Source: a virus
Taxonomy: Duplodnaviria > Heunggongvirae > Uroviricota > Caudoviricetes
DNA: 41,084 nt
IMG/VR virus record: IMGVR_UViG_2667527588_000007
Span: 1-41,084 of that record
Reading direction: 5' to 3' (one strand)
Translations under genes and position numbers: made by a program
Notes under the pieces: generated by a model
Database searches by the model: none
What the model saw: only the letters and a program-made list of their open reading frames with translations
What the model was told of the DNA's origin: nothing
In this document: piece by piece, positions 13,294 through 41,084 of the stretch
How positions within the stretch are numbered: the stretch's first letter is position 1
How the letters are laid out: the number at the start of each line of letters is the position of its first letter

Positions 13294-13306
13294 GTGGAGA
13301 ACGAGC

Positions 13307-15097: not shown

Positions 15098-15136
15098 CAC
15101 AGTACCCGCAAATATCGCGAGGTGAGAGATGACGAA

Positions 15137-15463: not shown

Positions 15464-15466
15464 TTT

Positions 15467-17383: not shown

Positions 17384-17409
17384 TAATAATTCTCAACTGC
17401 CTGAGGGGA

Positions 17410-17469
17410 GGGGCGGGTCAAATCCCTGTGGCCTGACGTCTTCCGGACTGCCCGCCCCATCGTTTTTTT
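17410..17469 (+). promoter_or_regulatory. GC-rich inverted repeat plus T-run; candidate cos/packaging site region
   Basis: GGGGCGGG ... CCCGCCCC inverted repeat (17410-17458) then TTTTTTT; lies between HNH and terS. Confidence 0.3.
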
Positions 17470-17508
17470 ATACCCGCGAAAAATGAAATTTAACCAGGAG
17501 TGCCGCAT

Positions 17509-19733: not shown

Positions 19734-19744
19734 CTGAGGTAATT

Positions 19745-19927
19745 ATGATCATGCTGATTCTCGCGCCTCTGGTGGGCGTGCTGGGGGTGCTTTTGCTGGC
19801 GTATGGTGCCTGGCTGATTTATCCCCCGGCGGGGTTTGTTGTTGCCGGGGCGTTGTGCCTGTTCTGGTCGTGGCTGGTGGCGCGATATCTCGACCGTACA
19901 CAGTCGTCTGTCGGCGGAGGTAAATAG
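19745..19927 (+). CDS. small hydrophobic membrane protein
   Basis: 60 aa, two predicted TM segments; GAGGT RBS; between terL and portal. Confidence 0.5.
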
Positions 19928-21796: not shown

Positions 21797-21810
21797 TCAG
21801 GAGAAATACG

Positions 21811-23016: not shown

Positions 23017-23023
23017 TCACTCA

Positions 23024-23050
23024 GGGGCGCGGAACCGCGCCCCTGTTCTG
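23024..23050 (+). terminator. GC-rich hairpin after capsid gene (attenuator-like)
   Basis: GGGGCGCGG-AA-CCGCGCCCC then TGTTCTG. Confidence 0.4.
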
Positions 23051-23064
23051 ACGGGTGAAGAATC

Positions 23065-23265
23065 ATGATCCTGAAACAAGATCTGAAATGGTCACCGGAC
23101 GGTATGCGTGTTGAGGTCATTCGGGCCGGTGAGTATGACGACGGGGCGCTTCATGCCCGGGTGCAGGAGATTGCACTTCAGGCCGGGTTAGCAGAGCGCG
23201 GAACCAGTGCAAAAAGCAGTAAAGCGACAAAAGAGAAAAAAGCCACGACCAGTAAAGAGGGCTGA
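23065..23265 (+). CDS. hypothetical small head-module protein
   Basis: 66-aa ORF between capsid and connector genes; Lys/Ser-rich C-terminus. Confidence 0.45.
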   Translation: MILKQDLKWSPDGMRVEVIRAGEYDDGALHARVQEIALQAGLAERGTSAKSSKATKEKKATTSKEG

Positions 23266-23267
23266 GT

Positions 23268-23591
23268 ATGCTTCTGACAATGGAAGAGATTAAAGCCCAA
23301 CTCCGGCTGGATGAGGATTTCGATACTGATGACCGCCATCTGCAACTGCTGGCCTGTGCGGCACAAAAGCGGACGGAAACGTATCTGAACCGGACGCTCT
23401 ATGCACCGGATGAAACCATTCCGGACAACGATCCGGACGGTCTGCACCTGCCGGATGATATTCGTCTGGGGATGCTGATGCTTATCAGCCATTTTTACGA
23501 AAACCGCTCGTCGGTTACGGAAGTGGAGAAACTCGACATGCCGCAGAGTTTTGGCTGGCTTGTTGGCCCGTACAGGTACTTTCCGCAATGA
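23268..23591 (+). CDS. head-tail connector protein (gp6-like)
   Basis: 107 aa; position and size typical of HK97-type head-tail connector; acidic N-terminus. Confidence 0.65.
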   Translation: MLLTMEEIKAQLRLDEDFDTDDRHLQLLACAAQKRTETYLNRTLYAPDETIPDNDPDGLHLPDDIRLGMLMLISHFYENRSSVTEVEKLDMPQSFGWLVGPYRYFPQ

Positions 23592-23998
23592 AAATTCGTC
23601 AGGCGCAGACCAGCGCAACCTACATTCTGCCGGACCCCGGCGAACTGAATAAACGCGTCCTGATTCGCCAGCGGGTGGATATGCCCGCGGATAACTTTGG
23701 CGTGGAGCCTCAATACCCGGTTACGTTCCGGACATGGGCGAAGGTTATCCAGACCAGTGCCACCACCTGGCAGGAAACCGCGCAGACCGGGGACGCCATC
23801 ACCCATTACATCACCATTCGTTACCGCCGGGGGATCACCGCTGATTATGAGGTGGTCTGCGGTGACAGTGTGTACCGGGTGAAACGTCAGCGCGATCTGA
23901 ACGGGGCGCGGCGCTTTCTGCTGCTGGAGTGTACGGAGCTGGGCGAATGTAGGCAGAGTCACGGAGGCAACAATGACGACTTCCTTTTTGCACGTTGA
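23588..23998 (+). CDS. head closure / head-tail adaptor protein
   Basis: 136 aa, ATGA-coupled to upstream gene. Confidence 0.6.
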   Translation: MKIRQAQTSATYILPDPGELNKRVLIRQRVDMPADNFGVEPQYPVTFRTWAKVIQTSATTWQETAQTGDAITHYITIRYRRGITADYEVVCGDSVYRVKRQRDLNGARRFLLLECTELGECRQSHGGNNDDFLFAR

Positions 23999-24479
23999 TT
24001 TTCAGCAGCCCGCGGAGATGCGCTTTAACCGCGCCCGTGTCCGGCGGGCGTTTGTCACGATTGGTCAGCGTCATATGCGTGATGCCCGTCGGCTGGTGAT
24101 GCGCCGTGCGCGGTCGGCAGCGGGTGAAAACCCCGGTTATCAGACCGGACGCCTGGCTCGTTCGATTGGTTACATGGTACCCAGAGCCAGTAAACATCGC
24201 CCTGGTTTTATGGCACGTATAGCCCCTAACCAGCGTAATGGAGAGGGAAACCGTCGTATCACCGGTGATTTTTATCCGGCTTTTTTGTTCTATGGCGTGA
24301 GGCGAGGGGCAAAGCGTCGTCGCAGCCATCATCGTGGTGCATCCGGTGGCAGCGGCTGGCGACTGGCTCCACGTAATAACTTCATGGTGGAAACGCTTGA
24401 AAAGAACCGCAGCTGGACACGCTATTTTCTGGCGCGGGAATTGCGTAAATCACTGAAGCCGGAGAGACGACACAGATGA
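23973..24479 (+). CDS. HK97 gp10-like tail-component protein
   Basis: 168 aa, Arg-rich, in head-tail joining module. Confidence 0.6.
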   Translation: MTTSFLHVDFQQPAEMRFNRARVRRAFVTIGQRHMRDARRLVMRRARSAAGENPGYQTGRLARSIGYMVPRASKHRPGFMARIAPNQRNGEGNRRITGDFYPAFLFYGVRRGAKRRRSHHRGASGGSGWRLAPRNNFMVETLEKNRSWTRYFLARELRKSLKPERRHR

Positions 24480-25036
24480 AACTGACGCCTGTTATTGCTG
24501 CACTGCGTGCCCGCTGTCCGTATTTTGAAAACCGGGTTGCAGGCGCGGCACAGTTCAAAAATCTGCCGGAGGTCGGAAAGCTGAGACTCCCGGCGGCGTA
24601 TGTGGTACCGGGTGATGACTCTCCGGGAGAAAACAAAAGCCAGACCGACTACTGGCAGGAGCTGAAAGAGGGCTTCTCCGTGGTTGTCATACTGAGTAAC
24701 GGGCGTGATGAGCGCGGTCAGTTTGCCTCGTATGATGTGGTGGACGATGTCCGGCAGATGCTCTTTAAGGCCCTGCTGGGCTGGAACCCGGAAGCGTGCG
24801 GTAACCCGATTACCTATGACGGCGGCACGCTGCTGGATCTGAATCGTCATGAGCTGATTTATCAGTTCGATTTTTCGGTCATCAGCGAGCTGACTGAAGA
24901 CGATACCCGCCAGCAGGATGATCTGAACAGTCTGGATGAACTGCAAACGCTGGCGATTGATGTTGATTATCTCGAGCCCGGTAACGGGCCTGACGGCGAT
25001 ATCGAACATCACATCGAAATAACCCTTCCTTCCTGA
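24476..25036 (+). CDS. tail completion protein (Mu gp37-like)
   Basis: 186 aa immediately upstream of sheath gene in Mu-like tail module. Confidence 0.5.
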   Translation: MKLTPVIAALRARCPYFENRVAGAAQFKNLPEVGKLRLPAAYVVPGDDSPGENKSQTDYWQELKEGFSVVVILSNGRDERGQFASYDVVDDVRQMLFKALLGWNPEACGNPITYDGGTLLDLNRHELIYQFDFSVISELTEDDTRQQDDLNSLDELQTLAIDVDYLEPGNGPDGDIEHHIEITLPS

Positions 25037-25044
25037 GGATCCTC

Positions 25045-25215
25045 ATGTTTGTCAAACCTGTTAAAGGGCGGTCAGTTCCTGACCCTGCCCGCGGCGACCT
25101 TTTGCCCGCCGAAGGGCGAAATGTTGACGAGAACAACTACTGGCTGCGCCGTGAAGCAGCGGGTGATATCCGGCGCGTGAATAAAAAGGTGAACACCGAT
25201 GACGATAAGCTTTAA
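25045..25215 (+). CDS. small hypothetical protein overlapping sheath start
   Basis: 56-aa ORF (MFVKPVKGRSVPDPARGDLLP...) with GAGGA RBS; not in ORF track because under 60 aa. Confidence 0.35.
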   Translation: MFVKPVKGRSVPDPARGDLLPAEGRNVDENNYWLRREAAGDIRRVNKKVNTDDDKL

Positions 25216-26695
25216 CACCATTCCGTCGAATACGCTGGTTCCGCTGTTTTATGCGGAAATGGATAACCAGGCGGCGAATACTGCACAGGACAGCGGAGCA
25301 TCGCTGCTGATTGGTCATGCCAATAACGGTGCAGAGATTGTTGCCAACAGTCTGGTACTGATGTCGTCGGCAGACTATGCACGCCAGATTTGTGGTGCGG
25401 GAAGTCAGCTGGCGCGTATGGTCGAGGCTTATCGCCAGACCGACCCGTTTGGCGAGCTGTATGTGATTGCCGTTCCTGAATCCACAGGCGCGGCGGCAAC
25501 GGTTACGCTGACGGTGACCGGGGCGGCAACCGAAACCGGCACGGTGAATGTCTATGTGGGACGTACCCGCGTGCAGGCTCCGGTGACCAACGGCGATAAC
25601 GTCACGACGATTGCCAGCAGTATCAAAGATGCCATCAATGCCGTTCCGGCCCTGCCGTTTACGGCTTCATCTTCGGCAGGCGTGGTCACACTGACCGCGC
25701 GTCATAAGGGGCTTTGCGGGAATGAAATTCCTGTCAGCCTCAATTACTACGGCTTTGGTGGGGGCGAAGTGCTGCCAGCGGGCGTACAGATTGCCGTGGC
25801 GACGGGTACCGCCGGAACGGGTGCTCCGGTTCTCACCGGCGCGGTGGCTGCAATGGCGGATGAGCCGTTTGATTATATCGGTCTGCCGTTCAACGACACG
25901 GCCTCCGTTAACACGCTGGTGACCGAGATGAACGATACCAGCGGTCGCTGGAGCTATGCGCGTCAGCTGTATGGTCATGTGTATACGGCAAAGATCGGCA
26001 CGCTGTCAGAACTGGTGACCGCAGGTGACCAGTTTAACCAGCAGCACATTACCCTGGCGGGGTACGAAAAAGAGACCCAGACGCCTGCCGACGAACTGGC
26101 GGCAAGCCGTACCGCCCGCGCAGCGGTGTTTATTCGCAACGATCCGGCACGTCCCACGCAGACCGGTGAGCTGGTGGGTATGCTGCCTGCGCCGAAGGGG
26201 AAACGGTTCACGATGACCGAACAACAGACCCTGCTGTCTCATGGCGTGGCAACGGCGTATGTCGAAAGCGGGGTACTGCGCATTCAGCGTGATGTCACCA
26301 CGTACAGGAAAAACGCTTACGGGGTTGCGGATAACAGCTACCTAGACAGTGAGACTCTGCATACCAGCGCGTATGTACTGCGCAAACTGAAATCCGTCAT
26401 TACCAGTAAGTACGGGCGTCACAAGCTTGCCAGTGACGGTACCCGCTTTGGTCCCGGTCAGGCGATTGTCACCCCGGCGGTGATCAAAGGGGAACTGCTG
26501 GCAACCTACCATCAGCTTGAGCGTGCGGGGATCGTGGAAAACTACGAACTGTTTAAGCAGTACCTGGTTGTGGAGCGTGATGCCAGCGATCCGAACCGCC
26601 TGAACACGCTGTTCCCGCCTGACTATGTTAACCAGTTGCGTGTCTTTGCCGTGGTTAACCAGTTCCGTCTTCAGTATTCAGAGGAGTCCGCATAA
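25199..26695 (+). CDS. contractile tail sheath protein (Mu gpL-like)
   Basis: 498 aa; AAGGTG RBS; followed directly by tube gene; Mu-like sheath family by recalled similarity. Confidence 0.85.
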   Translation: MTISFNTIPSNTLVPLFYAEMDNQAANTAQDSGASLLIGHANNGAEIVANSLVLMSSADYARQICGAGSQLARMVEAYRQTDPFGELYVIAVPESTGAAATVTLTVTGAATETGTVNVYVGRTRVQAPVTNGDNVTTIASSIKDAINAVPALPFTASSSAGVVTLTARHKGLCGNEIPVSLNYYGFGGGEVLPAGVQIAVATGTAGTGAPVLTGAVAAMADEPFDYIGLPFNDTASVNTLVTEMNDTSGRWSYARQLYGHVYTAKIGTLSELVTAGDQFNQQHITLAGYEKETQTPADELAASRTARAAVFIRNDPARPTQTGELVGMLPAPKGKRFTMTEQQTLLSHGVATAYVESGVLRIQRDVTTYRKNAYGVADNSYLDSETLHTSAYVLRKLKSVITSKYGRHKLASDGTRFGPGQAIVTPAVIKGELLATYHQLERAGIVENYELFKQYLVVERDASDPNRLNTLFPPDYVNQLRVFAVVNQFRLQYSEESA

Positions 26696-27051
26696 TGGCC
26701 CGTATCGGGGGAACCTGTTATTTCAAAATTGACGGTCAGCAGCTATCGCTGACCGGCGGCATTGAGGTGCCCATGAACAGGACGGTCAATGATGACATCA
26801 TCGGCCTGGACGGTTCAGTGGACCGCAAGGAAACTCACCGTGCGCCTTATGTCAAAGGGACCTTCAAGGTGCCGAAGAATTTTCCGGTGAGCAAAATCAC
26901 TTCGTCTGATGAGATGACCATCACTGCCGAGCTGGCGAACGGTCAGGTCTATGTATTGTCGTCCGCCTGGCTGCACGGCGAAGCGAACCATAATGCCGAA
27001 GAAGGCACGGTTGATCTTGAGTTCCACGGTGAAGAAGGGGATTACCAGTAA
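26695..27051 (+). CDS. tail tube protein
   Basis: 118 aa, GAGGAG RBS, stop overlaps next start; sheath-tube order. Confidence 0.8.
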   Translation: MARIGGTCYFKIDGQQLSLTGGIEVPMNRTVNDDIIGLDGSVDRKETHRAPYVKGTFKVPKNFPVSKITSSDEMTITAELANGQVYVLSSAWLHGEANHNAEEGTVDLEFHGEEGDYQ

Positions 27052-27320
27052 TGAAAGAGCTTGAGTTAAAGAAACCGATTATCGCTCATGGTGAGACACT
27101 CTCCGTACTGGAGTTTGATGAACCCACCGGGAAGGATGTCCGCGAGCTGGGGTATCCCTACCAGATGAATCAGGATGAGTCCGTCAGACTTCTGGCGCAT
27201 GTGGTGTCGAAATACATTGTGCGGCTGGCGAAAGTGCCGCAAAGCTCTGTCGACCAGATGTCTCCGGCAGACCTGAATGCAGCGGCGTGGCTTGTGGCTG
27301 GTTTTTTCCTCCAGGCCTGA
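27051..27320 (+). CDS. tail assembly chaperone (frame 0 product)
   Basis: 89-aa ORF between tube and tape measure; contains slippery TTTTTTC at 27302-27308. Confidence 0.7.
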   Translation: MKELELKKPIIAHGETLSVLEFDEPTGKDVRELGYPYQMNQDESVRLLAHVVSKYIVRLAKVPQSSVDQMSPADLNAAAWLVAGFFLQA

Positions 27321-27469
27321 CGGCTGAATACCTCACTGATCGCTTCTTTGACTGCGCCAGCTACTGGCGCATTAATCCCTTCGAATTGCTGAATATGCCG
27401 ATCAGTGAAATTCCCTTGCTGGTCAGTCAGGCAAACAGGATAGAGCAGGAGAAACGCACACATGGCTGA
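27287..27469 (+). CDS. tail assembly chaperone -1 frameshift extension
   Basis: -1 frame ORF beginning at the slippery site (FFPPGLTAEY...) and ending 8 nt into tape measure gene. Confidence 0.6.
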   Translation: MACGWFFPPGLTAEYLTDRFFDCASYWRINPFELLNMPISEIPLLVSQANRIEQEKRTHG

Positions 27470-29294
27470 ATTTGAGCTTAAGGCGTTGATCACCGGTGTC
27501 GACAGGCTTTCTCCCGCGCTGTCGAAAATGCAAAAGAAAATCCGGGGATTTAAACGCCAGGCGGAAGAAGCGTCACAGGGTGGGCTGGCGCTTGGTGGCG
27601 GACTGGCAGCGGGTCTGACGCTTTCCCTGAAATCTTATGCCGATCAGGAAAACGCCGCCACCGGGCTGAAAGTCGCCATGATGGATGCGAACAGCGAGGT
27701 TGGAAAGAGCTTTCAGGACATCAATAAACTGGCTATTGGCCTGGGTAACCAGCTACCCGGTACAACGGCTGATTTCCAGAACATGATGCAGATGCTGGTG
27801 CGTCAGGGGATCCCGGCAGAAAACATTCTTGGTGGTGTGGGTAAAGCGACAGCTTATCTTGCGGTACAACTGAAAAAAACACCGGAAGCGGCTGCTGAGT
27901 TTGCTGCAAAGATGCAGGATGCTACCGGAACGGCGTCAGAAGACATGATGGGGCTGTTCGACACTATCCAGAAGGCGTTTTATCTGGGCGTTGACGATAC
28001 CAACATGTTGTCCTTCTTCACTAAAACCAGTTCTGTTCTGAAGATGGTGAATAAGGACGGACTTCAGGCTGCACAGAGCCTTGCCCCTATCAGCGTCATG
28101 ATGGATCAGATGGGGATGAACGGGGAGTCGGCAGGTAATGCCCTGCGAAAAGTTATCCAGTCCGGATTAAGCGTTAAGAAAATCAGGGACGTCAATAAAG
28201 TCATGGCCCGCCAGAAACTCGGGGTACAGCTCGATTTTACTGACGGCAAAGGAAGTTTTGGCGGTCTTGATAACATGTTCAGGCAACTGGCAAAGCTGCG
28301 AAAACTGACCGACGTTAAGCGAACAGGTGTACTTAAGGCAATATTTGGTGATGATGCCGAAACCCTTCAGGTGGTCAATGCACTAATCGATAAAGGAAAG
28401 GATGGCTACGATCAGATCCAGCAGAAGATGAATAAACAGGCCAGCCTGAATAAACGTGTTCAGGCCCAGCTTGGTACGCTGTCCAACCTGTGGGAGGCAA
28501 TGACGGGGACCGCAACTAACGGCCTTGCGGCTATTGGTGGCGCATTTTCTGGTGACGCCAAAAATATCACGCAATGGCTGGGGGAGTTAGGGGAAAAATT
28601 CACGAAGTTTGCGGATGAAAATCCCCGGGTTATTCGCGGCGTCGTCGGGCTTGCTGCCGGTCTTGCGATTCTGAAACTGGGATTGATGGGCGTTGGCGGT
28701 GCCATCAGTATTGTCAGCAGGATCATGTCGATGACGCCGATTGGAATGATTGCGACGGCGATAGCCCTGGCTGCGGGATTAATTATCACTAACTGGGATG
28801 TTGTCGGACCTTATTTCAAGAAGCTCTGGGAAACCATTGGTCCTTATTTTGAGGCTGGCTGGGAACTTCTGAAGAAGGTTTTTGCCTGGTCGCCGCTGGG
28901 GATGGTAATCAATAACTGGGGACCGGTTGTTAAGTGGTTTCAGGATATGTGGGACAAGCTGAAGCCAATTATTGAGTGGTTTACCGACAGTTCCGGTGAC
29001 ACGGTCGATGCCATTAACTCTGCGCAGTGGGGCGCGGGTGCTTATGATGCTTATGGGACGGGAATACTGGCGCGGGGATACACACCTTATCAGGCGGTAG
29101 ATCCGGCTCAGTCAAACAACGCCTCCGATGCCACAGGCTCGAATCCCTTCATGATTAATAAAGCTACCGCGCCAAAAGTTGATGGTGAGATCAAGGTATC
29201 ATTTATAAATATGCCACCAGATATGCGGGTTACGGAAACACGCTCCAGTGGCATTGATATAAATCACGATGTTGGCTATACCCGATTTTGGTAG
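27462..29294 (+). CDS. tail tape measure protein
   Basis: 610 aa, Ala/Gly-rich with hydrophobic C-terminal region; AGGAGA RBS; follows chaperone pair. Confidence 0.9.
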   Translation: MAEFELKALITGVDRLSPALSKMQKKIRGFKRQAEEASQGGLALGGGLAAGLTLSLKSYADQENAATGLKVAMMDANSEVGKSFQDINKLAIGLGNQLPGTTADFQNMMQMLVRQGIPAENILGGVGKATAYLAVQLKKTPEAAAEFAAKMQDATGTASEDMMGLFDTIQKAFYLGVDDTNMLSFFTKTSSVLKMVNKDGLQAAQSLAPISVMMDQMGMNGESAGNALRKVIQSGLSVKKIRDVNKVMARQKLGVQLDFTDGKGSFGGLDNMFRQLAKLRKLTDVKRTGVLKAIFGDDAETLQVVNALIDKGKDGYDQIQQKMNKQASLNKRVQAQLGTLSNLWEAMTGTATNGLAAIGGAFSGDAKNITQWLGELGEKFTKFADENPRVIRGVVGLAAGLAILKLGLMGVGGAISIVSRIMSMTPIGMIATAIALAAGLIITNWDVVGPYFKKLWETIGPYFEAGWELLKKVFAWSPLGMVINNWGPVVKWFQDMWDKLKPIIEWFTDSSGDTVDAINSAQWGAGAYDAYGTGILARGYTPYQAVDPAQSNNASDATGSNPFMINKATAPKVDGEIKVSFINMPPDMRVTETRSSGIDINHDVGYTRFW

Positions 29295-29322
29295 CCAGGA
29301 TTCCCCTCACAGGTATTGCTGG

Positions 29323-29350
29323 TTGTAAGTCATAAATAGAGTGATAGAAT
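29323..29350 (+). promoter_or_regulatory. candidate sigma70 promoter for tail-cluster moron
   Basis: TTGTAA, 16-nt spacer, TAGAAT upstream of the 29386 ORF. Confidence 0.4.
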
Positions 29351-29385
29351 TAATGCACATTTAGAAAAATGTTAATAGGCGAAAA

Positions 29386-29916
29386 ATGAAAGGCTATATC
29401 ACAGCAAGTGTAATTCTTGGAGCAGCGGCTATTTTTTCATCTCTCATAATCTCTGGCAACATCTCCTTTAAAGATGAACATATTATTCAGTTATCTGGAG
29501 GAGCCATAAAACTTGGTGATGTTTATAAAGAAAATAAATTGATAAGTGCAAAGATTATTTTTCCAGATAATCAGGGTGAACAGATTCTTGTTGTCGACGG
29601 CAATCCTGAAAACTTTAAGGAGGATTTTCAGGAGAAATTAAATAAAGTAATAAAAACTTTAAATGCGTCAAAGAAAAAAGATGAAGAGAAAGTTAGCCTG
29701 GATAATTTAAGTGTTATTGAAGAGTCTAAACTAGAGCTCGTTTCTGCGGTGCGTTACTCTGCTCAGTATGTTCCTATGTTTACTCTGACGCTGGACAAAA
29801 AAGAAATTACCATGCCTAAAAATACGGTAATATTTCCATTTGCCAGCGATGAAACAGCTAAGTATTTAAATGAACAACAGCAAAAGTATAAAGATTCGTT
29901 GTTTCTGACTCGCTAA
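29386..29916 (+). CDS. hypothetical membrane-anchored protein (AT-rich moron inside tail cluster)
   Basis: 176 aa; N-terminal hydrophobic anchor (ITASVILGAAAIFSSLIISG); Lys/Glu-rich; own promoter and terminator. Confidence 0.6.
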   Translation: MKGYITASVILGAAAIFSSLIISGNISFKDEHIIQLSGGAIKLGDVYKENKLISAKIIFPDNQGEQILVVDGNPENFKEDFQEKLNKVIKTLNASKKKDEEKVSLDNLSVIEESKLELVSAVRYSAQYVPMFTLTLDKKEITMPKNTVIFPFASDETAKYLNEQQQKYKDSLFLTR

Positions 29917-29934
29917 TTAATAAAATTCATTACA

Positions 29935-29965
29935 AGGCCACCTTCTAATAGGTGGCTTTTTTATT
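29935..29965 (+). terminator. intrinsic terminator after tail-cluster moron
   Basis: GGCCACC-TTCTAATA-GGTGGC hairpin followed by TTTTTTATTTT. Confidence 0.8.
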
Positions 29966-29977
29966 TTCGGAGTGTAT

Positions 29978-31306
29978 ATGACGTGGAAAGACAGGCTTCA
30001 GGATGCGTCATTTCGAGGTGTGCCGTTTAAGGTTGAAGAAGAAAGTGCGGGAACCGGTCGCCGTGTGGAAACACATGAATACCCGAACCGCGACAAGCCC
30101 TATACCGAAGATCTGGGAAAAGTCACTTTCCGCCCGTCCATCACAGCTTATGTGGTGGGAGATGACTGCTTTGACCAGCGCGATCGCCTGATTGAAGCGC
30201 TGAATAAACCAGGTCCCGGCACGCTTGTCCACCCGACATATGGTGAGCTGAAAGTCTGTGTTGACGGGGAAGTTCGGGTCAGCACATCGAAAAGTGAAGG
30301 GCGTATTGTCCGCTTTGACCTGAAGTTTGTCGAAGCGGGAGAACTCTCTTACCCCACATCAGGCGTGGCGACGGCGCAGACGCTGATGTCATCCTGTTCT
30401 GCACTGGATGACTGCATCAGTGACAGTTTCAGTAGTTTCAGTATCGATGGCGTGGCAGATTTTGTGCAGAACGACGTCGTCGGTAATGCCAGCACAATGC
30501 TTGGGTATGTTTCTGATGCGATGAAAGTGGTGGATTCTGCCGTATCGGATGCCGCCAGGCTGTTGCAGGGGGATATCTCGGTACTTCTGCCGCCGCCATC
30601 GTCAGGCAAAAATTTCGTTGAGCAGGTGCAGAAAATGTGGCGTACCGGGAAACGCCTTTATGGTAACGCCAGCGACCTGGTCACCATGATCAAAACGCTT
30701 TCCGGTGTCAGCCTCGGCAGCGATCTGCAACCGCGCGGCGTCTGGAAAACGGACAGTAAAACCACCGCCACGGCTACGCAGCAGCGTAACGTGGTTGCCA
30801 GCACCCTTCGTACGACCGCAATCAGCGAAGCGACGTATGCCGTCACCCGATTGCCTGCGCCAACAACTTCCGCGGTGATGCAGAATGCCGCAGTGGGGCA
30901 GGCAACAACACCTGCGCAGAGCACTGGCTGGCCTTCCGTCACGCATCCGGCACTGAACAATGCACCGGCGGTGAAAAACACAGTTGACCTGCCGACGTGG
31001 GAAGAACTGACTGACATTCGCGACACACTGAATACGGCAATTGATAAGGAGTTGTCCCGTACAACCAGTGATGCGCTGTTTCTGGCGCTGCGCCGGGTGA
31101 AAGCAGATCTGAATGCGGATATCAACACGCGCCTTGAACAGTCTGCACGGATCATTCAGCGCGCACCGGATGAGGTTTTACCCGCGCTGGTGCTGGCGGC
31201 GACCTGGTTTGATAACGCGGCGCGTGACGCGGACATTATTCGGCGTAATGCCATTACGCATCCCGGCTTTGTGCCGGTGATCCCTCTGAAGGTGCCAGTG
31301 CAATGA
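29978..31306 (+). CDS. DNA circulation protein (Mu gpN-like)
   Basis: ATG at 29978 with GGAG RBS 6 nt upstream; N-terminal region typical of Mu N family; follows tape measure. Confidence 0.7.
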   Translation: MTWKDRLQDASFRGVPFKVEEESAGTGRRVETHEYPNRDKPYTEDLGKVTFRPSITAYVVGDDCFDQRDRLIEALNKPGPGTLVHPTYGELKVCVDGEVRVSTSKSEGRIVRFDLKFVEAGELSYPTSGVATAQTLMSSCSALDDCISDSFSSFSIDGVADFVQNDVVGNASTMLGYVSDAMKVVDSAVSDAARLLQGDISVLLPPPSSGKNFVEQVQKMWRTGKRLYGNASDLVTMIKTLSGVSLGSDLQPRGVWKTDSKTTATATQQRNVVASTLRTTAISEATYAVTRLPAPTTSAVMQNAAVGQATTPAQSTGWPSVTHPALNNAPAVKNTVDLPTWEELTDIRDTLNTAIDKELSRTTSDALFLALRRVKADLNADINTRLEQSARIIQRAPDEVLPALVLAATWFDNAARDADIIRRNAITHPGFVPVIPLKVPVQ

Positions 31307-32382
31307 ACGACAATGTCACGCTACGGGTAAATGGCCGGGAGTGGAATGGCTGGACATCGGTGCGCATCGGTGCCGGTATTGAACGGCTGGCGCGGGATTT
31401 CAGTGTGGAGATCACCCGCCAGTGGCCGGGTGATGAGGGTATCACCACGCTTCAGCCGCGCATTAAAAACGGTTCAAAAGTGGAGGTGCTGATTGGTGAT
31501 GAGCTGGTGATCACCGGCTGGGTGGAGGCGACGCCCGTTCGTTACGATGCCCGTTCGGTCAGCACCGGTATTGCCGGACGCAGTCTGACCGCTGACCTGA
31601 TTGACTGTGCAGCCGAACCGACACAGTTTAACGGACGATCGCTGGTACAGATTGCGCAGGCGCTTGCTGCGCCTTTCGGCATTGAGGTGGTGAACAACGG
31701 TGCGCCGTCGGGTGTTATTCCTGACATCCAGCCTGATCACGGCGAAACGGTGATTGAGGTGATCAACAAAATACTCGGTCAGCAGCAGGCACTGGCTTAC
31801 GACGACCCGCACGGCAGGCTGGTGATTGGCGGTATTGGCTCAACTCGGGCACATACCGCGCTGGTACTTGGGGAAAACATCCTTTCCTGCGATACGGAGA
31901 AGAGTATCCGGGAGCGGTTTTCAGTTTACCAGGTGGCGGGGCAGCGTGCCGGAAACGACGATGATTTCGGTGAGGCCACCACCACCGCGCTGCGGGCCCG
32001 CACAGAGGACGCATTTATTGCCCGTTACCGTCCGATGTATATCAGGCAGACAGGGCAGGCCACGGGGGCAGGCTGTATTGCGCGTGCTGACTTTGAAGCC
32101 CGACAACGGGCGGCGCGGACGGATGAAACCACTTATGTGGTGCAGGGCTGGCGACAGGGTAACGGTACGCTGTGGCAGCCCAACCAGCGGGTGATTGTCT
32201 TCGATCCGGTCTGTGGTTTCGACAATACCGAACTGCTTGTTTCGGAAGTCACGTTTACTCAGGACCAGAACGGCACCCTGACGGAAATCCGTGTCGGCCC
32301 GCCTGATGCTTATCTGCCTGAACCCGAAGATCCCGGCGCGCGGAAAAAGAAAAAAGCCAGAGTACAGGAGGACCCGTTCTGA
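31303..32382 (+). CDS. baseplate hub / tail protein (Mu gpP-like)
   Basis: 359 aa; ATGA coupling; position in Mu-like baseplate module. Confidence 0.7.
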   Translation: MNDNVTLRVNGREWNGWTSVRIGAGIERLARDFSVEITRQWPGDEGITTLQPRIKNGSKVEVLIGDELVITGWVEATPVRYDARSVSTGIAGRSLTADLIDCAAEPTQFNGRSLVQIAQALAAPFGIEVVNNGAPSGVIPDIQPDHGETVIEVINKILGQQQALAYDDPHGRLVIGGIGSTRAHTALVLGENILSCDTEKSIRERFSVYQVAGQRAGNDDDFGEATTTALRARTEDAFIARYRPMYIRQTGQATGAGCIARADFEARQRAARTDETTYVVQGWRQGNGTLWQPNQRVIVFDPVCGFDNTELLVSEVTFTQDQNGTLTEIRVGPPDAYLPEPEDPGARKKKKARVQEDPF

Positions 32383-32930
32383 TGAGGGCGATTGAAGCCA
32401 TGCAGCGACAACTTCTCGGCCTGATTGGGCGGGCCGTGGTGAAAAGCATCAGTGCCGCCACGAAATGTCAGACCGTGGATGTGTCCCTGATTGCCGGTGA
32501 ACCCAAAGCCGGGGTTGAACATCTTGAACCCTACGGTTTTACCGCAAGGGCAAACAGCGGTGCGGAAGCGGTGGTGTTGTTTCCGGATGGCGACCGTTCT
32601 CATGCGGTGGTTGTTACGGTGTCGGACCGGCGCTACCGCCTGAAAGGGCTGCAGACGGGTGAGGTGGCTGTCTATGACGATCAGGGGCAGTCCGTGACGC
32701 TGACCCGGGAGGGGATCGTGGTGGACGGTGCAGGTAAAACGATCACGTTTCGCAATTCACCTAAAGCACGTTTTGAAATGGACCTGGAAGTGACAGGACA
32801 GGTGAAAGACCTGTGCGACTCCAGCGGCACTACCATGTCAGCGATGCGGCTTGCCTATAACGGGCATCGTCACAGAGAGAACGGTCAGGGCAGTAACACC
32901 GACAAACCGGATAAAGCGATGGAGGCATGA
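32382..32930 (+). CDS. baseplate assembly protein V / spike (Mu gp45-like)
   Basis: 182 aa; gene order and size. Confidence 0.7.
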   Translation: MRAIEAMQRQLLGLIGRAVVKSISAATKCQTVDVSLIAGEPKAGVEHLEPYGFTARANSGAEAVVLFPDGDRSHAVVVTVSDRRYRLKGLQTGEVAVYDDQGQSVTLTREGIVVDGAGKTITFRNSPKARFEMDLEVTGQVKDLCDSSGTTMSAMRLAYNGHRHRENGQGSNTDKPDKAMEA

Positions 32931-33355
32931 TGGAACTGTGGCTGACGGTGAACGGTAAACGCACCTGCGCCAGCGCACCGCTGGATCCGCTGACCCGCGC
33001 CGTGGTGATTTCCCTGTTTACCTGGCGGCGGGCGGAGCCTGATGACAACGCCGACGTCCCGATGGGATGGTGGGGGGATACCTGGCCTGCGGTACAGAAT
33101 GACCGTTACGGCTCCCGACTGTGGCTGCTTCAGCGCAGCAAACTGACCAATCAGCTGGTGCAGACGGTAAGGGGGTATATCCGCGAATGCCTGCAATGGA
33201 TGATTGATGACGGCGTGGTGTCCCGTATTGATCTGGATATCCGCCGCACCGGGATTAATGAGCTGGGTAACAGTATCACCCTCTGGCGTCGTGACGGACC
33301 GGTAATGATTTCTTTTGATGATCTGTGGAGTGCGATAACGCATGGCGGACAGTGA
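32927..33355 (+). CDS. baseplate protein (Mu gp46-like)
   Basis: 142 aa, coupled to neighbours. Confidence 0.65.
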   Translation: MMELWLTVNGKRTCASAPLDPLTRAVVISLFTWRRAEPDDNADVPMGWWGDTWPAVQNDRYGSRLWLLQRSKLTNQLVQTVRGYIRECLQWMIDDGVVSRIDLDIRRTGINELGNSITLWRRDGPVMISFDDLWSAITHGGQ

Positions 33356-34400
33356 ATTTCAGCGCCCGACGCTGGCAGAAAATATCAGTATGCTCCGTAA
33401 CGATTTATTCGCCAGGCTGGACGTCAGCGACACGCTCCGGCGCATGGATGAAGACGTGCGGGCAAAGGTGTATGCGGCGGCGCTGCATACGGTTTACGGG
33501 TACATCGATTATCTGGCAATGAACATTCTGCCTGACCTGTGCGATGAGTCCTGGCTGGCGCGACATGCTGCGATGAAACGGTGTCCGCGCAAGGGGGCCA
33601 CGGCTGCCAGCGGGTATATGCGCTGGGAAGGTGTCAGCGATGGCCTGAAGGTGACCGCCGGGAGTGTTATTCAGCGCGATGACCTGGTGCAGTACACGGC
33701 AACTGCCGATGCAACCAGCTCCGGTGGTGTCCTGCGCGTGCCGATCGCCTGCTCAAATGCAGGCGCGGTCGGTAACGCTGACGACGGTACGGCATTAATC
33801 CTGGTCACGCCGGTGAATGGTCTGCCGTCTTCCGGTGTGGCTGACACCCTGACAGGCGGATTTGATACTGAAGAGCTGGAAACGTGGCGCGCCCGCGTCA
33901 TTGAGCGGTATTACTGGACGCCGCAGGGTGGGGCTGACGGGGACTATGTCGTCTGGGCTAAAGAAGTGCCCGGCATTACCCGCGCATGGACATACCGTCA
34001 CTGGATGGGAACGGGAACTGTCGGTGTGATGATTGCCAGCAGTGACCTGATTAATCCCATTCCGGAAGAATCAACGGAAACGGCGGCAAGACAACATATC
34101 GGGCCACTGGCCCCGGTGGCAGGCTCTGATTTGTATGTGTTCAGGCCGGTGGCACATACGGTGGATTTTCATATCCGCGTGACGCCGGACACACCGGAAA
34201 TACGGGCTGCCATCACCGCGGAGTTGCGTTCGCTCCTGCTGCGTGATGGTTATCCGCAGGGAGAACTGAAGGTATCGCGTATCAGTGAGGCGATTTCCGG
34301 TGCGAACGGGGAATACAGCCATCAGTTGCTTGCACCGGCAGACAATATCTCCATTGCAAAAAATGAACTGGCGGTACTGGGGACGATTTCATGGACGTGA
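33342..34400 (+). CDS. baseplate J-like protein (Mu gp47-like)
   Basis: 352 aa; position upstream of tail fibre genes. Confidence 0.7.
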
Positions 34401-34975
34401 CAAACGATGATTACATCCGTCTGTTGTCGGCACTGTTGCCCCCCGGTCCGGCGTGGTCAGCCAGCGATCCGGCGATTGCCGGTGCGGCACCGTCATTAAC
34501 CCGCGTTCATCAGCGTGCGGATGCCCTGATGCGGGAGCTGGATCCGCGCACCACCACTGAACTGATAAACCGCTGGGAGCGTCTGTGCGGTCTGCCGGAT
34601 GAATGTATTCCCGCAGGGACACAGACCCTTCGCCAGCGTCAGCAACGGCTGGATGCGAAGGTTAACCTGGCGGGCGGCATCAACGAGAATTTTTATCTTG
34701 CACAGCTTGCTGCCCTGGGCAGACCAGACGCTACCATCACGCGATACGACAAAAGCACGTTCACCTGCTCATCGGCCTGTACTGACGCGGTGAATGCGCC
34801 GGAATGGCGGTATTACTGGCAGGTCAACATGCCAGCCGCCACAAACACCACCTGGATGACATGTGGCGATCCCTGTGATTCCGCGCTGCGTATCTGGGGC
34901 GACACCGTTGTCGAATGTGTGCTTAACAAACTCTGCCCGTCGCATACCTACGTAATTTTTAAATATCCGGAGTAA
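34391..34975 (+). CDS. tail protein, DUF2313 / YmfQ-like (Mu gp48-like)
   Basis: 194 aa; recalled similarity to e14 YmfQ-type proteins; precedes tail fibre. Confidence 0.6.
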
Positions 34976-34978
34976 TCC

Positions 34979-35626
34979 ATGCATCGTATAGACACGAAAA
35001 CCGCGCAGAAGGATAAGTTCGGCGCGGGTAAGAACGGTTTTACCCGTGGTAACCCCCAGACAGGCACGCCTGCCACCGATCTGGATGATGACTACTTTGA
35101 CATGTTGCAGGAAGAACTCTGCAGCGTGGTGGAGGCATCCGGTGCCAGCCTGGAGAAGGGGCGAAACGACCAGTTGCTTACCGCGCTTCGTGCTCTGCTG
35201 TTAAGCCGCAAGAATCCGTTTGGTGATATCAAATCGGATGGCACGGTGAAAATGGCTCTCGAAAACCTTGGTTTGGGAGAAGCGGCAAAACGGAATGTGG
35301 GGACAGGAGAAAATCAGGTACCGGATATGAACAACTTTGGTAACTCATTGACCGCCAATGGATACCAGAAATTACCTGGGGGGATGATTATTCAATGGGG
35401 GAGTTTTTCTGTCTCACCAACCGGAGGAAGTGTTGGAACAGTTGATATAACATTACCTGTAGCTTTCCCTGCTGCTTGTCGTTCGGTAAACGCTCTTATT
35501 TCAACTAATGATCCTTCTGCCCGTTCTGTGGGCTTTGATATTGGAAGTACCAACAGAACTAAAATCAGATTTACTTACACTTCTGCTACAACAAATTCAA
35601 TTTACTGGATGGCTGTGGGGTATTAA
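34979..35626 (+). CDS. tail fibre protein (constant N-terminal part plus variable C-terminal part in current orientation)
   Basis: 215 aa; ORF crosses the left inversion site at 35258-35281 in frame. Confidence 0.75.
35258..35281. repeat. left recombination site of invertible segment (gix/hix-like)
   Basis: CTCGAAAACCTTGGTTTGGGAGAA; inverted relative to 37081-37106 with 2 central mismatches over about 20 bp. Confidence 0.7.
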
Positions 35627-37159: not shown

Positions 37160-37498
37160 ATGCTCATCGGTTATGTACGTGTGTCAACAAATGACCAGAA
37201 CACCGCATTGCAACGAAACGCACTGGAGTGCGCAGGATGTGAACTGATATTCGAGGATAAGATCAGCGGCAGATGGGGGGGCAGTCAGGGGGTTGCCCAG
37301 CTCAATTTGTTTGATGAAAACGCGCCACGCCCGGGTAGTGAGAAACTGATGGAAGTGTTGGATCACCTCAACGCCAAAGACGGCAGGGGAACCTTGTACT
37401 TTACCAGGCAGGGTATCCAGCCACAGTTGCAGATGAAACGCGAGATGCTTTCACCTAGATATACAACGAGATATGATGACATATTAAGAGTTAAATAG
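37160..37498 (+). pseudogene. serine DNA invertase (Pin/Gin/Hin family) remnant: only the first 37 codons conserved
   Basis: MLIGYVRVSTNDQNTALQRNALECAGCELIFEDKISG matches invertase N-terminus including catalytic Ser; downstream sequence in all frames lacks the remaining catalytic core; break coincides with a G7 run. Confidence 0.7.
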
Positions 37499-37517
37499 AA
37501 CATCAGCGAGGTGATAA

Positions 37518-38513
37518 ATGAAAGGGATATATTATGAGAATACTCGAACCTCTATACCGGGGTGGATATCAAACCTTCATGAAACTCAAAGGTTTGGTTA
37601 CGCTTATGAAACAAGTACTCACTTTGTTCATTTATATGGTAAAGCTGAACCTTTTAATGTCATATCAGTTGGCCTTACCGCAATACAAGGTAAAAGTGGG
37701 ACTCTAAATGATTGGGTTATAAATACATTTGGAGCAACTAACATCCAAACATTACAAAATGATATCGGACATGTTGTTGAAGGTGTCTGGAGACCATCTT
37801 TATATTATAGCGATGACATTCAAGGTGCGTTGTTAGTTGATCCGTTCGAGAAAATGTCGTCAGGACAAGCTCTGCGCAATCTTATTAATAAACTCGATGA
37901 ATTATTTTTGTACATTGAGCCAAGCATCACAGGTCTGAAAGCATATAGCCATAAATGCAGGGAGCTATTAATTTTGGCTTGTACAGAAGTTGAGAATCAG
38001 TGGGTGTCACTGATAAAAAAAACAAACCTAAATAATGTAGGGGCTAGATATACAACTAGGGACTATGTACGGCTTGCAGATAAATGTTTTTTAAAAGAAT
38101 ACAAGGTGAATTTTAAAAATTACTCAGGCTTAAGAGATTTCACACCATTTTTATCTTGGGTTCCGACTGCCTCTACTGGCTCTTTACCTTGGTACGATGC
38201 TTATAATGGAACTAAGCATGATAGGGAAGCAGGTTTTAATCTCGCATCATTGGAGAATGTGATGGATGCCTTATCTGCTTGTATAGTATTGTATTGTGTT
38301 AAATATGGACCTTATGATTTGGTGTCTGGTGGGGATCTGCTTTCAGGAACGTTTAACGAGCATTTTTCTCTTAGTTTCATAAATAGTGATAAAAGTAGCT
38401 ATTACGTTCCCGAATTGAATTTTAACGCAAACGCAATAACAGACTTGTGTGTGATTGACTGTTATAGAGAAAAACTCAACAAAGCATGGGTTACAGAACC
38501 TCTTGTTTTATAG
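37518..38513 (+). CDS. hypothetical protein (AT-rich accessory gene at invertase-proximal hotspot)
   Basis: 331 aa, GAGGTG RBS, AT-rich with Asn/Tyr-rich composition; occupies DNA that replaced the invertase 3' portion. Confidence 0.6.
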   Translation: MKGIYYENTRTSIPGWISNLHETQRFGYAYETSTHFVHLYGKAEPFNVISVGLTAIQGKSGTLNDWVINTFGATNIQTLQNDIGHVVEGVWRPSLYYSDDIQGALLVDPFEKMSSGQALRNLINKLDELFLYIEPSITGLKAYSHKCRELLILACTEVENQWVSLIKKTNLNNVGARYTTRDYVRLADKCFLKEYKVNFKNYSGLRDFTPFLSWVPTASTGSLPWYDAYNGTKHDREAGFNLASLENVMDALSACIVLYCVKYGPYDLVSGGDLLSGTFNEHFSLSFINSDKSSYYVPELNFNANAITDLCVIDCYREKLNKAWVTEPLVL

Positions 38514-39174
38514 GTAGTATTAATTCAGCACCTTGATTTTTTGTATTTCCCACGGCACGCGTCACGGCGTGCCAGATAAACGTGTCGGCAGACGCTGTAC
38601 CCTTAGCAACAATCTCCTCCACCACTCTACCTACGACATTCTGCCGTATCCACTCACGAGCTGCTTCCGGTGATAGCACCAGCGGCCGGCGATCATGAAT
38701 ATCTACCAGCCCTTTATCCGCAGCAGTAGTTACAATCAGGAACCCCTCAGCTTCATCGCCACGTTCAAATGGTGTGCTGCCAATAGCGGCCATGAATATA
38801 GGCTGGCCGTCAGCCCTGCGAATGAAGTAGGGCTGTTTTATAATGCCTTCGCGCTTCCATTCGAACCAACCATCAGCAAAGCAAATTGCACGTCCATGCA
38901 ACCAGAGAGGTTTGAACATTCGGCTGGTGGCCGCAGTTTCTGAGCGTGCGTTAATCAGCGGAGGTTTATTCCACCATCCGGGAGCGAATCCCCAGATAAC
39001 AGGATCGAGGTGCAACTGTTCGTCGCGTTCGCTCAAAAGCAGAACTTTGGTACCGGGTGCAACGTTGAATCGTCCAATTGGTTCTGGAACGTATGGGATG
39101 TCACGCTCAGCTTCTTCTGATAGGAGGGCAAGATAGTCTTCACGCGTCATTGATTGGGCGAAACGTCCGCACAT
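38491..39174 (-). CDS. SOS-response-associated peptidase (SRAP / YedK-like abasic-site processing protein)
   Basis: N-terminal MCGRFAQ with catalytic Cys2; 227 aa; GGAGG RBS. Confidence 0.8.
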   Translation of the reverse strand: MCGRFAQSMTREDYLALLSEEAERDIPYVPEPIGRFNVAPGTKVLLLSERDEQLHLDPVIWGFAPGWWNKPPLINARSETAATSRMFKPLWLHGRAICFADGWFEWKREGIIKQPYFIRRADGQPIFMAAIGSTPFERGDEAEGFLIVTTAADKGLVDIHDRRPLVLSPEAAREWIRQNVVGRVVEEIVAKGTASADTFIWHAVTRAVGNTKNQGAELILPIKQEVL

Positions 39175-39217
39175 AGAAACCTCCAGTCACCAGACTGAAA
39201 GTATAGGGTAGGGATAC

Positions 39218-39242
39218 AAAAAAGCCCGCATAAGCGGGCTTT
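39218..39242 (-). terminator. intrinsic terminator (minus-strand orientation)
   Basis: GCCCGC-ATAA-GCGGGC hairpin with A6 on plus strand (U-run on minus-strand transcript). Confidence 0.6.
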
Positions 39243-39370
39243 CATGTCACTCGGGAGCCGCGGCTCCTTTACGTATCCTTTTTTGTCTCCTCACCGTCTA
39301 GTCGGTGTCCTGCTGAGACTGCTAACTTCCTGTTTTTGTTAGTGCTGTCCTGGCACTGTCCAATCATGAT

Positions 39371-39398
39371 TGGTGGAGCTGGCGGGAGTTGAACCCGC
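39371..39398 (-). other. 28-nt fragment identical to the 3' end of tmRNA (ssrA); probable att-site remnant
   Basis: Minus strand reads GCGGGTTCAACTCCCGCCAGCTCCACCA, the T-arm and acceptor 3' end of E. coli tmRNA as recalled; upstream sequence does not continue the tmRNA. Confidence 0.55.
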
Positions 39399-39689
39399 AG
39401 ACACGTCGTATGCAAGAACTTGCTGCGGCTGGATGGTGGACTTTCGATAGTGCGAGTATTGAATGATGTCCAGCCGTTATTGATTTTACGTATTTTTTGC
39501 ATGAAAAGATTAGCACCTCATCCCACCGCTCCTCCATGATTTTACACCACTGTCTCTAGAGCTCTGTGTGCCAGAAGCGGAAGTTCATACCTCTAAGTGG
39601 ATATTTTGTTAAAATATGCCATCAAAATCCTTGCTACCTCATGGTTGACAGTGATAAAAGTTGCACAAATTACTGAGAGAGAAATTACA

Positions 39690-40127
39690 ATGAGTGGAGA
39701 TACCTCTGAGTTTCCTAATAAACTTCCCAGAAAGCCAATAGGTTGGCGTGAAGAATATAGTGATTTTACAGGTAGTATTATATTCTATATGATATTCCCG
39801 TTGCTTCCATTACTTTTTGAGTCAATTAACACAGGAACTCACCCTTCAATACAATCATTAACAATTACTGCATCAATATACTCTTTTTCCATCGGTGTAT
39901 CTTCTCGAGATAAAGCTATTTTTTGCTTAGGGATTTTTTGTGGTTTCATTCTCGCTTATCTTTACGGTAAAGTTAGTGAGCCAAAAGTTATTATATATAC
40001 CTGGTACTATGTAGTTACGGTGATACTACTGGCTGTAATATTTATATTTCATCTTCTCGAACGATTTAATAAACACGTGGTAGAATGTGAACCTGTTTTC
40101 TCCTTTAAGTTTACGAGAGGTATGTAA
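39690..40127 (+). CDS. hypothetical multi-pass membrane protein
   Basis: ATG at 39690 preceded by purine-rich GAGAGAGA and a TTGACA -35-like motif (39645-39650); AT-rich; several hydrophobic segments; track start at 39597 is GTG. Confidence 0.5.
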   Translation: MSGDTSEFPNKLPRKPIGWREEYSDFTGSIIFYMIFPLLPLLFESINTGTHPSIQSLTITASIYSFSIGVSSRDKAIFCLGIFCGFILAYLYGKVSEPKVIIYTWYYVVTVILLAVIFIFHLLERFNKHVVECEPVFSFKFTRGM

Positions 40128-40594
40128 TGGAGGATATTATATTTATGTATGCTGGGTTGATAGTGTCTTCTTTAGCGGCAATTGTAGGCTTAGCTACATC
40201 TATCATGCATACTCGTAAAAAAGTTAAAGCTAATGAAGAGCTTGCAACTGAAATGGCAAAGAGCTTTAGTGAGCTTGAATCTATCAATAAAAGCATAGGG
40301 GATTTGGAAGCGACAATTAAAAGGATAGATGAAGATGAATTAAAGTTAAGAATAGCAATTGAATCTTTAAAGGAAATGACTTCTGATGAAAAAAAAGAAT
40401 CTAGGGATATGTTGAAAAACATCGTTAATGATGAGGTGTTCATTAAAGTTCTTCTCGAAAGCTATAAAAAACTGGATACCCAGTCAAAGAAGGAGATTTA
40501 TTTGACTTTTTCCAAGTCGACAGATAGAGGCCTTTATCGATATATAAAAAGAATAGCTTCATCAGTACTCGATAACTTAATGGTTAAAATATAA
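40127..40594 (+). CDS. hypothetical membrane-anchored coiled-coil protein
   Basis: TAATG coupling to upstream gene; GAGAGG RBS; N-terminal TM helix followed by Glu/Lys-rich helical region; AT-rich. Confidence 0.55.
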   Translation: MEDIIFMYAGLIVSSLAAIVGLATSIMHTRKKVKANEELATEMAKSFSELESINKSIGDLEATIKRIDEDELKLRIAIESLKEMTSDEKKESRDMLKNIVNDEVFIKVLLESYKKLDTQSKKEIYLTFSKSTDRGLYRYIKRIASSVLDNLMVKI

Positions 40595-40949
40595 ATGCGT
40601 GCGCGCGAGATACAATTTCTCGCGCATTGTGTAACCGGCGACAAAACCCTGTTATCATTATAGCGACCCGTTTAGATGGGCCATTTGTGCCCCAACAGCT
40701 TCTGGGTATAGATTTCCTCGGCCCTGTATAGATACTTTGCTAAAGAGTATTTTAATGGTATTTTGCTTACGTACTATTCTTCTAACGAATGTCTGCCTTA
40801 TCCTGTGAGCTGCCTTCGCTCAGCATTGGCCTGTTTCTCGTTGATTTATATACTGCGACACTAACATAGGCGGATATGTCCGCTCCTCGCTCATAACAGA
40901 CATTCACTACAGTTATGGCAGAAAGGTATGCATGCTGGGTGGGGAAAGT

Positions 40950-41084
40950 ATGAAGGAAAAGAAAACTGCTGCGCTGTTTGTCGTCACGTTTATCTTCATT
41001 GGCTATGCAAGTCATAATACAAGGTGGGACAAAACTGAGACACATAAGGCCTCACAATGGCTTGCAAGGCTTTACATGTTTTGA
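40950..41084 (+). CDS. small hydrophobic peptide ORF ending exactly at window end
   Basis: MKEKKTAALFVVTFIFIGYASHNTRWDKTETHKASQWLARLYMF (44 aa) with GGGGAAAG upstream; stop TGA is the last three bases of the window. Confidence 0.3.
   Translation: MKEKKTAALFVVTFIFIGYASHNTRWDKTETHKASQWLARLYMF

Follow-up and report, generated by a model that had tools for sequence, protein, structure and literature searches.

Introduction

Among the closest described systems is that of LLS, a free lambdoid phage (PQ299149) that carries a 29-bp identity to the 3′ end of the tmRNA gene ssrA and should integrate without destroying the gene (Genome Res 2025, PMC12315714). The general principle is that the attP of a tDNA-targeting element carries a fragment of its target, so that integration rebuilds the gene (PMC4383910). 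In the LLS record the identity block is annotated both as a 'tmRNA pseudogene' and as attP, and it is located between cargo and a hypothetical gene, which is followed by int and xis. A second group of phages uses a tRNA gene: SfIV, SfII, SfI, SfV, phi458 and the P22-like phages are all known to integrate at thrW. In Sf phages, O-antigen modification genes lie next to attP.

The DNA analyzed here is the 41,084-nt sequence of a Caudoviricetes virus record in IMG/VR (IMGVR_UViG_2667527588_000007; hereinafter designated the window). A reading of the window made from its letters alone, without database searches (hereinafter the sequence-only reading), had pointed out 28 minus-strand nucleotides identical to the T-arm and acceptor 3′ end of tmRNA, followed by a terminator in the same orientation, and had proposed either a second ssrA-targeting element or a recombination scar marking a module boundary. 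In the following we compare this fragment with ssrA- and thrW-associated elements of E. coli genomes and with free phages.

Results

The fragment lies inside a thrW prophage

The integrase encoded next to thrW is 100% identical to that of SfIV, 98.5–99.5% identical to those of SfII, SfI, SfV and phi458, and 90% identical to those of P22-like phages, whereas it shares only 25–27% identity with LLS Int. No ssrA-type integrase was found in the window, the sole match to LLS Int being the thrW integrase gene itself. The gene order runs from proA, thrW and int through lambdoid early genes, a P27-type terminase, an HK97-type head and a Mu-like tail to tail-fibre and invertase remnants, the SRAP gene, the terminator, the trailer, the ssrA core and two cargo genes (Table 1).

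A search of the window at loose thresholds returned no second thrW core and no thrW attR. Two loci match the window to its last base, those of TB06052 (99.7%) and 23CRST025 (99.1%). The 46-bp thrW attR repeat lies 66–111 bp past the window end in TB06052 (L003) and at the equivalent position in 23CRST025 (L002). The locus thus has both marks of a thrW prophage, a P22/SfIV-family integrase beside thrW and the 46-bp repeat at the far end, with the placement of attR resting on these two near-identical genomes, as the window itself ends before it. Because the attR lies beyond the window end in the near-identical loci, the ssrA block is internal to the prophage, which by sequence comparison has an estimated length of ~39.8 kb and places the block ~1.75 kb from attR. 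The sequence-only reading had looked to the DNA beyond the window end for an integrase or the remainder of an island belonging to the fragment; what TB06052 and 23CRST025 show there is the thrW attR of the same prophage.

Downstream of attR, TB06052 carries additional thrW-linked elements before the normal pao-yagU-ecp backbone resumes, and its resident ssrA is intact and ~2.6 Mb away. A chromosomal inversion between prophages at thrW and ssrA was considered and rejected, given that TB06052 is colinear through pao, yagU and ecp and that its ssrA is intact elsewhere.

Both tDNA loci of TB06052 are occupied by more than one element. The region beyond the thrW attR (L003 22551–35167) is a ~12.5-kb element with its own tyrosine recombinase gene (33729–35006) and a 15-nt thrW 3′ repeat (35153–35167), which makes the thrW locus a tandem array; between this element and pao-yagU lies a mosaic island with genes for conjugation, for polysaccharide and for toxin-antitoxin systems. 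The ssrA locus of the same genome (L021 28363–42409) contains a degraded LLS/FREC5-type prophage, with int at 29249–30421 and a 27-nt attR core at 28363–28389, and after it another integrase-bearing element. TB06052 thus holds an ssrA-type relative together with the thrW prophage, and the early genes of the two are 94–95% identical.

Table 1 Features of the window around the ssrA 3′-end fragment and at the thrW end of the prophage
Feature	Position (nt)	Strand	Basis
thrW (tRNA-Thr CGT)	1369–1444	+	ARAGORN/Rfam; last 46 bp (1399–1444) are the attL core
Prophage integrase, SfIV/P22 (thrW-specific) type	1459–2622	–	Protein identity
Chimeric ORF, deletion scar	37160–37498	+	Pfam Resolvase residues 3–39 and DUF4113 residues 61–111
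SRAP (YedK-like) cargo gene directly beyond the terminator	38491–39174	–	Pfam PF02586, E = 2.5e-48
Intrinsic terminator hairpin and U-run closing the trailer	39218–39242	–	Fold; kept in all aligned copies
ssrA-type trailer (P′-arm DNA) 3′ of CCA	39243–39370	–	Homology to post-ssrA DNA
ssrA 3′-end core (T-arm, acceptor stem 3′ strand and CCA)	39371–39398	–	28-nt identity
Lambda b-region element in place of the integrase-side (P) arm of an ssrA attP	39399–39585	–	Lambda/phi458 homology
Two AT-rich cargo genes between the relic and the thrW attR	39597–40594	+	ORFs
Conserved block right of the cargo slot, adjoining the thrW attP/attR	40879–41084		Lambda/phi458 identity

The core is the end of ssrA and not a tmRNA gene

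The 28-mer GCGGGTTCAACTCCCGCCAGCTCCACCA occurs once in the window, on the minus strand of the core interval and with 0 mismatches, and is absent from all 100 dinucleotide-preserving shuffles. It equals the final 28 nt of the annotated ssrA in 19AR1321 (L001 6731–6758), FREC5, CFSAN027343 and TB06052. When the full 363-nt ssrA is compared with the window by BLAST, the match is limited to ssrA positions 336–363. The base immediately 5′ of the 28-mer is T in the window and C in ssrA, and alignments show the sequence further 5′ to be unrelated to tmRNA. The identity and the non-tmRNA upstream sequence described by the sequence-only reading therefore both hold. No second ssrA core was found in the window at loose thresholds.

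ARAGORN and Rfam together identify thrW alone; ARAGORN reports zero tmRNA genes in the window, and in a permissive Rfam scan the tmRNA model RF00023 reaches 18.4 bits, below its gathering score of 47. The complete tRNA-like domain, tag frame and pseudoknots of a tmRNA gene detectable by ARAGORN or RF00023 are not present, and the full gene that the sequence-only reading had named as fatal to its interpretation is thus absent from the window.

The core, trailer and terminator form one homologous unit

Homology to the ssrA locus extends ~155 nt beyond CCA, through the terminator, and the match is therefore not a short chance identity: aligned with the ssrA locus, it lengthens to 183 nt, where the sequence-only reading had allowed that it might shrink. 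This 183-nt unit (39216–39398) is 88–93% identical to the post-ssrA DNA of other strains. The same range holds for the trailer in comparisons with the post-ssrA DNA of FREC5 and 19AR1321, the distal repeat of 19AR1321, the CP4-57 attR of K-12, where the flank with the matching trailer lies between ypjF and ypjA, and the attP of LLS, which is 92.8% identical to the whole unit over 181 nt. By these alignments the interval is a single homologous unit, best read as the cargo-side half of an ssrA-type attP together with its surrogate terminator.

The terminator reads GCCCGC-UUAU-GCGGGC followed by UUUUUU. A simple pattern scanner for terminators left the hairpin unlisted, and folding confirmed it, with an energy of –22.4 kcal/mol (z = –4.4); the minus-strand terminator of the sequence-only reading is real. 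It is not an independent feature, being part of the conserved ssrA-trailer unit that is also present in the LLS attP, and in ssrA lysogens it would serve as a surrogate ssrA terminator.

A perfect 14-nt palindrome, CCAATCATGATTGG (39360–39373), overlaps the CCA end of the ssrA fragment and is conserved in the ssrA trailers of FREC5, 19AR1321, K-12 and LLS. Another type of trailer (CTTTTGATAGG...) lies 3′ of ssrA in TB06052 and CFSAN027343.

Comparison with ssrA- and thrW-integrating relatives

The FREC5 prophage, which resides in ssrA, is 96.8–97.9% identical to the window over positions 4059–6374, 8414–13301 and 17033–35280 and 92.8% identical over 15113–15909, all matched stretches amounting to ~25 kb. 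FREC5 Int shares 86% identity with LLS Int, and its gene lies at the far prophage end beside a 27-nt ssrA core (attR). The window and FREC5 differ in an arc that starts at the tips of the tail fibres, takes in att and ends at the first early genes; this arc is the integration and accessory module.

In 19AR1321, the same trailer stands immediately after intact ssrA, next to a homologous SRAP gene and intact umuDC, and the ssrA-SRAP arm is 82% identical at the DNA level to window positions 38641–39398. The distal ssrA repeat of 19AR1321 (L008 3704–3877) has a 5-nt deletion (CTCCA) just before its CCA end, resembling the 'damaged tDNA fragments' of the Islander paper (PMC4383910).

The free phage phi458 (Int 99.5% identical) serves as an 'empty-site' comparator. 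Its order is invertase, b-like element, cargo, right-hand block and attP, and it lacks a 2.15-kb block (37243–39391) that in the window separates the invertase N-terminus from the b-like element; this block comprises a UmuC remnant, a 331-aa ORF, the SRAP gene, the terminator and the trailer, and it ends at the ssrA core. In the chimeric ORF of the window, the N-terminus of a DNA invertase is fused to the C-terminal DUF4113 domain of UmuC, and this deletion scar would be the left edge of a block imported from the arm of an ssrA-type phage.

Compared with the LLS attP, which has a ~29-bp ssrA identity block followed by the trailer and terminator of the P′ arm, the window retains 28 of the 29 bp, the trailer and the terminator, all oriented to the neighbouring cargo and tail genes as in LLS, but not the P arm and cognate integrase gene 5′ of the core: LLS has the hypothetical gene and its own int/xis on that side, whereas the window has the b-like element. 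The window integrase, of the SfIV type, is unrelated to LLS Int, and the thrW attP/attR it belongs with is ~1.75 kb from the block.

The CP4-57 attR of K-12, a displaced tDNA fragment under the Islander principle (PMC4383910), likewise consists of an ssrA 3′ fragment with the same trailer, and as in such fragments the window core is identical to the end of the target gene (28/28 nt). Unlike the CP4-57 attR, it is not separated from an upstream intact ssrA by an island with a cognate integrase, because the window has neither ssrA nor an ssrA-type integrase and ssrA of TB06052 is ~2.6 Mb off; it bounds no integrase-bearing island and is found within another prophage at another locus of the chromosome. 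With SfIV, SfII, SfI, SfV, the P22-type phages and phi458 the window shares Int and the 46-bp thrW core, and its right-arm skeleton is that of phi458, but none of the sequenced free Sf/P22-type phages, nor phi458, has the ssrA relic. Together, these comparisons identify the window fragment as a genuine ssrA 3′-end homologue that is neither a tmRNA gene, nor the edge of a second island, nor an artefact.

A lambda b-like element adjoins the core

Three mosaic joints, at ~39216, 39398/39399 and ~39585, flank the fragment. Of the two proposals made in the sequence-only reading, the recombination scar at a module boundary is the one that stands, as does its attribution of the partial tmRNA 3′ end to an integrase system, for which the LLS attP provides the match. 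The second ssrA-targeting element is not supported, with one core copy, no ssrA-type integrase and phage DNA on both flanks.

The element on the 5′ side of the core is 81% identical to lambda (J02459 24162–24348, between ea47 and ea31) and 83% identical to phi458, and it ends in an inverted repeat, CCGCAG...CTGCGG. In alignment, the sequences of lambda, phi458 and the window agree as far as ...GTGTCTGCGG and then each differs; since all three diverge right after GCGG, this position is a recurrent mosaic joint. The junction break itself falls within the four bases GCGG, which both partners have in common and which lie on the 5′ margin of the stretch identical to ssrA. For a tDNA att site of the T-loop type, strand exchange would be expected there. 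Three crossover subsites are recognised in tDNAs, the T loop among them (PMC4383910).

The b-like element is ~190 nt long, non-coding and conserved in many lambdoid phages. Its final ~100 nt lie directly 3′ of DinI-like genes in three prophages (L011, L019 and L020). Some prophages (L011, L016) carry two or three partial copies, and the element is also present at L014 3501–3691. The possibility that it represents the P arm of a live ssrA phage was rejected, the P arms of FREC5, TB06052, 19AR1321 and LLS being unrelated to it.

For the two cargo genes to the right of the element, no Pfam match reaches the gathering score, and PADLOC returns marginal matches only (E about 0.005–0.007); the 331-aa ORF likewise has no significant Pfam or PADLOC match. 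The conserved block beyond the cargo genes is 85–87% identical to phi458 and to the lambda DNA between ea59 and the prophage end (L006 7162–7303); Z1323PEC0013 is 95.6% identical, over 40927–41084 only.

The junction is common in E. coli and surrounded by variable cassettes

Using a 141-nt probe across the junction and a coverage of at least 80%, we found the junction in 775 of 5426 complete E. coli genomes (~14%). Among the matches listed, the junction site is without an annotated feature. None of the free phage genomes in the collection has the junction, no record covering at least 80% of the query. The copies sampled belong to prophages at thrW, beside prfC, beside yecD and at the lambda att site (ybhB-bioA), to a Rac-type prophage next to the sit operon and to a 30-kb record labelled as a plasmid. 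In the last of these (L018, NZ_CP104634.1, 30.5 kb), the relic lies between a restriction-modification cassette and chromosomal genes of the thrW region (LysR and ykgR remnants), and the record may represent DNA of that region that was excised or wrongly assembled.

The genes on either side of the relic vary among copies. To its left are SRAP, restriction-modification with GIY-YIG, an ImmA/HTH/BRO set or helicase-type genes; to its right are the two cargo genes of the window, retron Ec48 with its reverse transcriptase, a SMEK-domain protein or a 379-aa hypothetical protein. The right-hand slot looks like a cargo and defence hotspot. Equivalents of this variable slot, between the relic with its b-like element and the conserved attP-adjacent block, are present in L015–L018.

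In nine sampled orphan copies, the core has 0 mismatches out of 28 in five and 1, 1, 5 and 8 mismatches in the other four, and a further degenerate copy lies within the FREC5 prophage itself. The flanks of the five mismatch-free copies are 7–17% different from those of the window. Core conservation in these five exceeds a simple prediction of neutral decay and could reflect selection or repeated refreshment by live ssrA-type sites. The overall pattern fits a relic that is decaying in some lineages and that may be refreshed in others by recombination with live ssrA-type sites, with slight room left for selection.

Discussion

The 28-mer, the ~155-nt trailer and the terminator are best read, with a probability of about 0.8, as the relic P′ half of an LLS/FREC5-type lambdoid attP, left as the scar of an integration-module exchange to thrW. 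Phages of this type integrate into the 3′ end of ssrA, their own copy of that end and their terminator rebuilding the gene. The present prophage shares its structural genes and much of its early genome with an ssrA-integrating sibling, but has an SfIV-type Int and a thrW attP. In the exchange, the P arm and the ssrA-type integrase presumably gave way to the b-like element, a slot for cargo, an attP for thrW and an integrase of the SfIV type, with a putative break on the 5′ margin of the ssrA-identical stretch that would have left the P′ half between two cargo cassettes.

How the junction arose can be pictured in more than one way. An ssrA-type Int could have recombined its attP with a pseudo-site (GCGG) in another phage, with homologous recombination in shared genes then resolving the product; alternatively, illegitimate recombination at a moron boundary could have joined the two sequences. 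The history, be it a module swap, a tandem integration or an aberrant excision, is here reconstructed from its end states only. The relic marks the boundary between accessory-gene cassettes. As a recombination site it is most likely inert now, and its terminator may continue to halt transcription from one cassette to the next.

An unlikely variant is that the relic is not inert, and that the ssrA core, trailer and b-like element are together a maintained landmark of a lambdoid cargo and defence hotspot. The sole hint in this direction is the mismatch-free 28-mer in five copies with 7–17% diverged flanks. If this were true, the fragment could act as a pseudo-attB at which LLS-type phages or satellites enter resident prophages and give rise to hybrids, or as a homology anchor whose identity to resident ssrA is preserved by gene conversion and which drives the exchange of flanking cassettes, including restriction-modification, retron Ec48, SRAP and others.

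We consider it quite unlikely that the fragment is host DNA, the ssrA 3′ end with its native trailer, caught by aberrant excision in the style of specialized transduction and not inherited from a phage attP. The trailer is indeed 88% identical to the K-12 DNA between the CP4-57 attR and ypjA, which is the original chromosomal ssrA flank. However, the attP of the free phage LLS already has the same trailer and terminator (92.8%), so that no new capture is needed, and the trailers of the ssrA lysogens FREC5 and 19AR1321 are equally close. Capture may still be the ancient origin of the LLS-type attP, though not of the window copy.

A second ssrA-targeting island or satellite, distinct from the thrW prophage but inserted in it or beside it, could have left the fragment as its displaced attR or attL. 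It is usual for a partial 3′ end of tmRNA to lie at the end of an island (Islander principle, PMC4383910), and related strains have tandem arrays at both thrW and ssrA. Against such an element, the core is present in a single copy, no ssrA-type integrase accompanies it, ordinary lambdoid phage DNA lies on both flanks in the same skeleton as in phi458, the thrW attR of the same prophage follows ~1.75 kb on, and the resident ssrA of TB06052 is elsewhere and intact. We regard a second island as very improbable.

Still less probable is a functional RNA, that is, a tRNA-like 3′ module or a truncated tmRNA-like minus-strand transcript. In its favour, neither the T-arm nor the acceptor 3′ strand is damaged and a strong terminator comes next, and in some prophages the element lies 3′ of a DinI-like gene and before the terminator, where it is probably transcribed. 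Against this, the Rfam score stays below the tmRNA gathering threshold and ARAGORN finds nothing, folding is no better than that of shuffles (z = –0.04 and –0.89), a predicted 15-bp long-range pairing with 39520–39535 is not kept in other copies, and from several copies the T-stem, or more than that, is missing. Identity by chance or an assembly artefact, for which nothing speaks except the short length of the match, can be dismissed in view of the 0/100 shuffles, the 183 nt of homology and the same junction in 775 complete genomes.

The relic left by the proposed module exchange is ordinary phage mosaicism: att-site relics are already known, and this one represents a specific, common and mostly unannotated form. 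Beyond annotation and phage evolution it changes nothing in existing knowledge. For annotation, a tmRNA 3′ end that stands alone, away from ssrA, should not be taken as an island boundary or an integration event, and the orphan core could mislead software that matches tDNA fragments to tDNAs. The junction is mostly unannotated in the sampled RefSeq records, despite its presence in ~14% of complete E. coli genomes. For phage evolution, it offers a clean, datable case of an integration-module swap, from ssrA to thrW, between near-identical phages, and the relic marks a slot of accessory and defence gene turnover.
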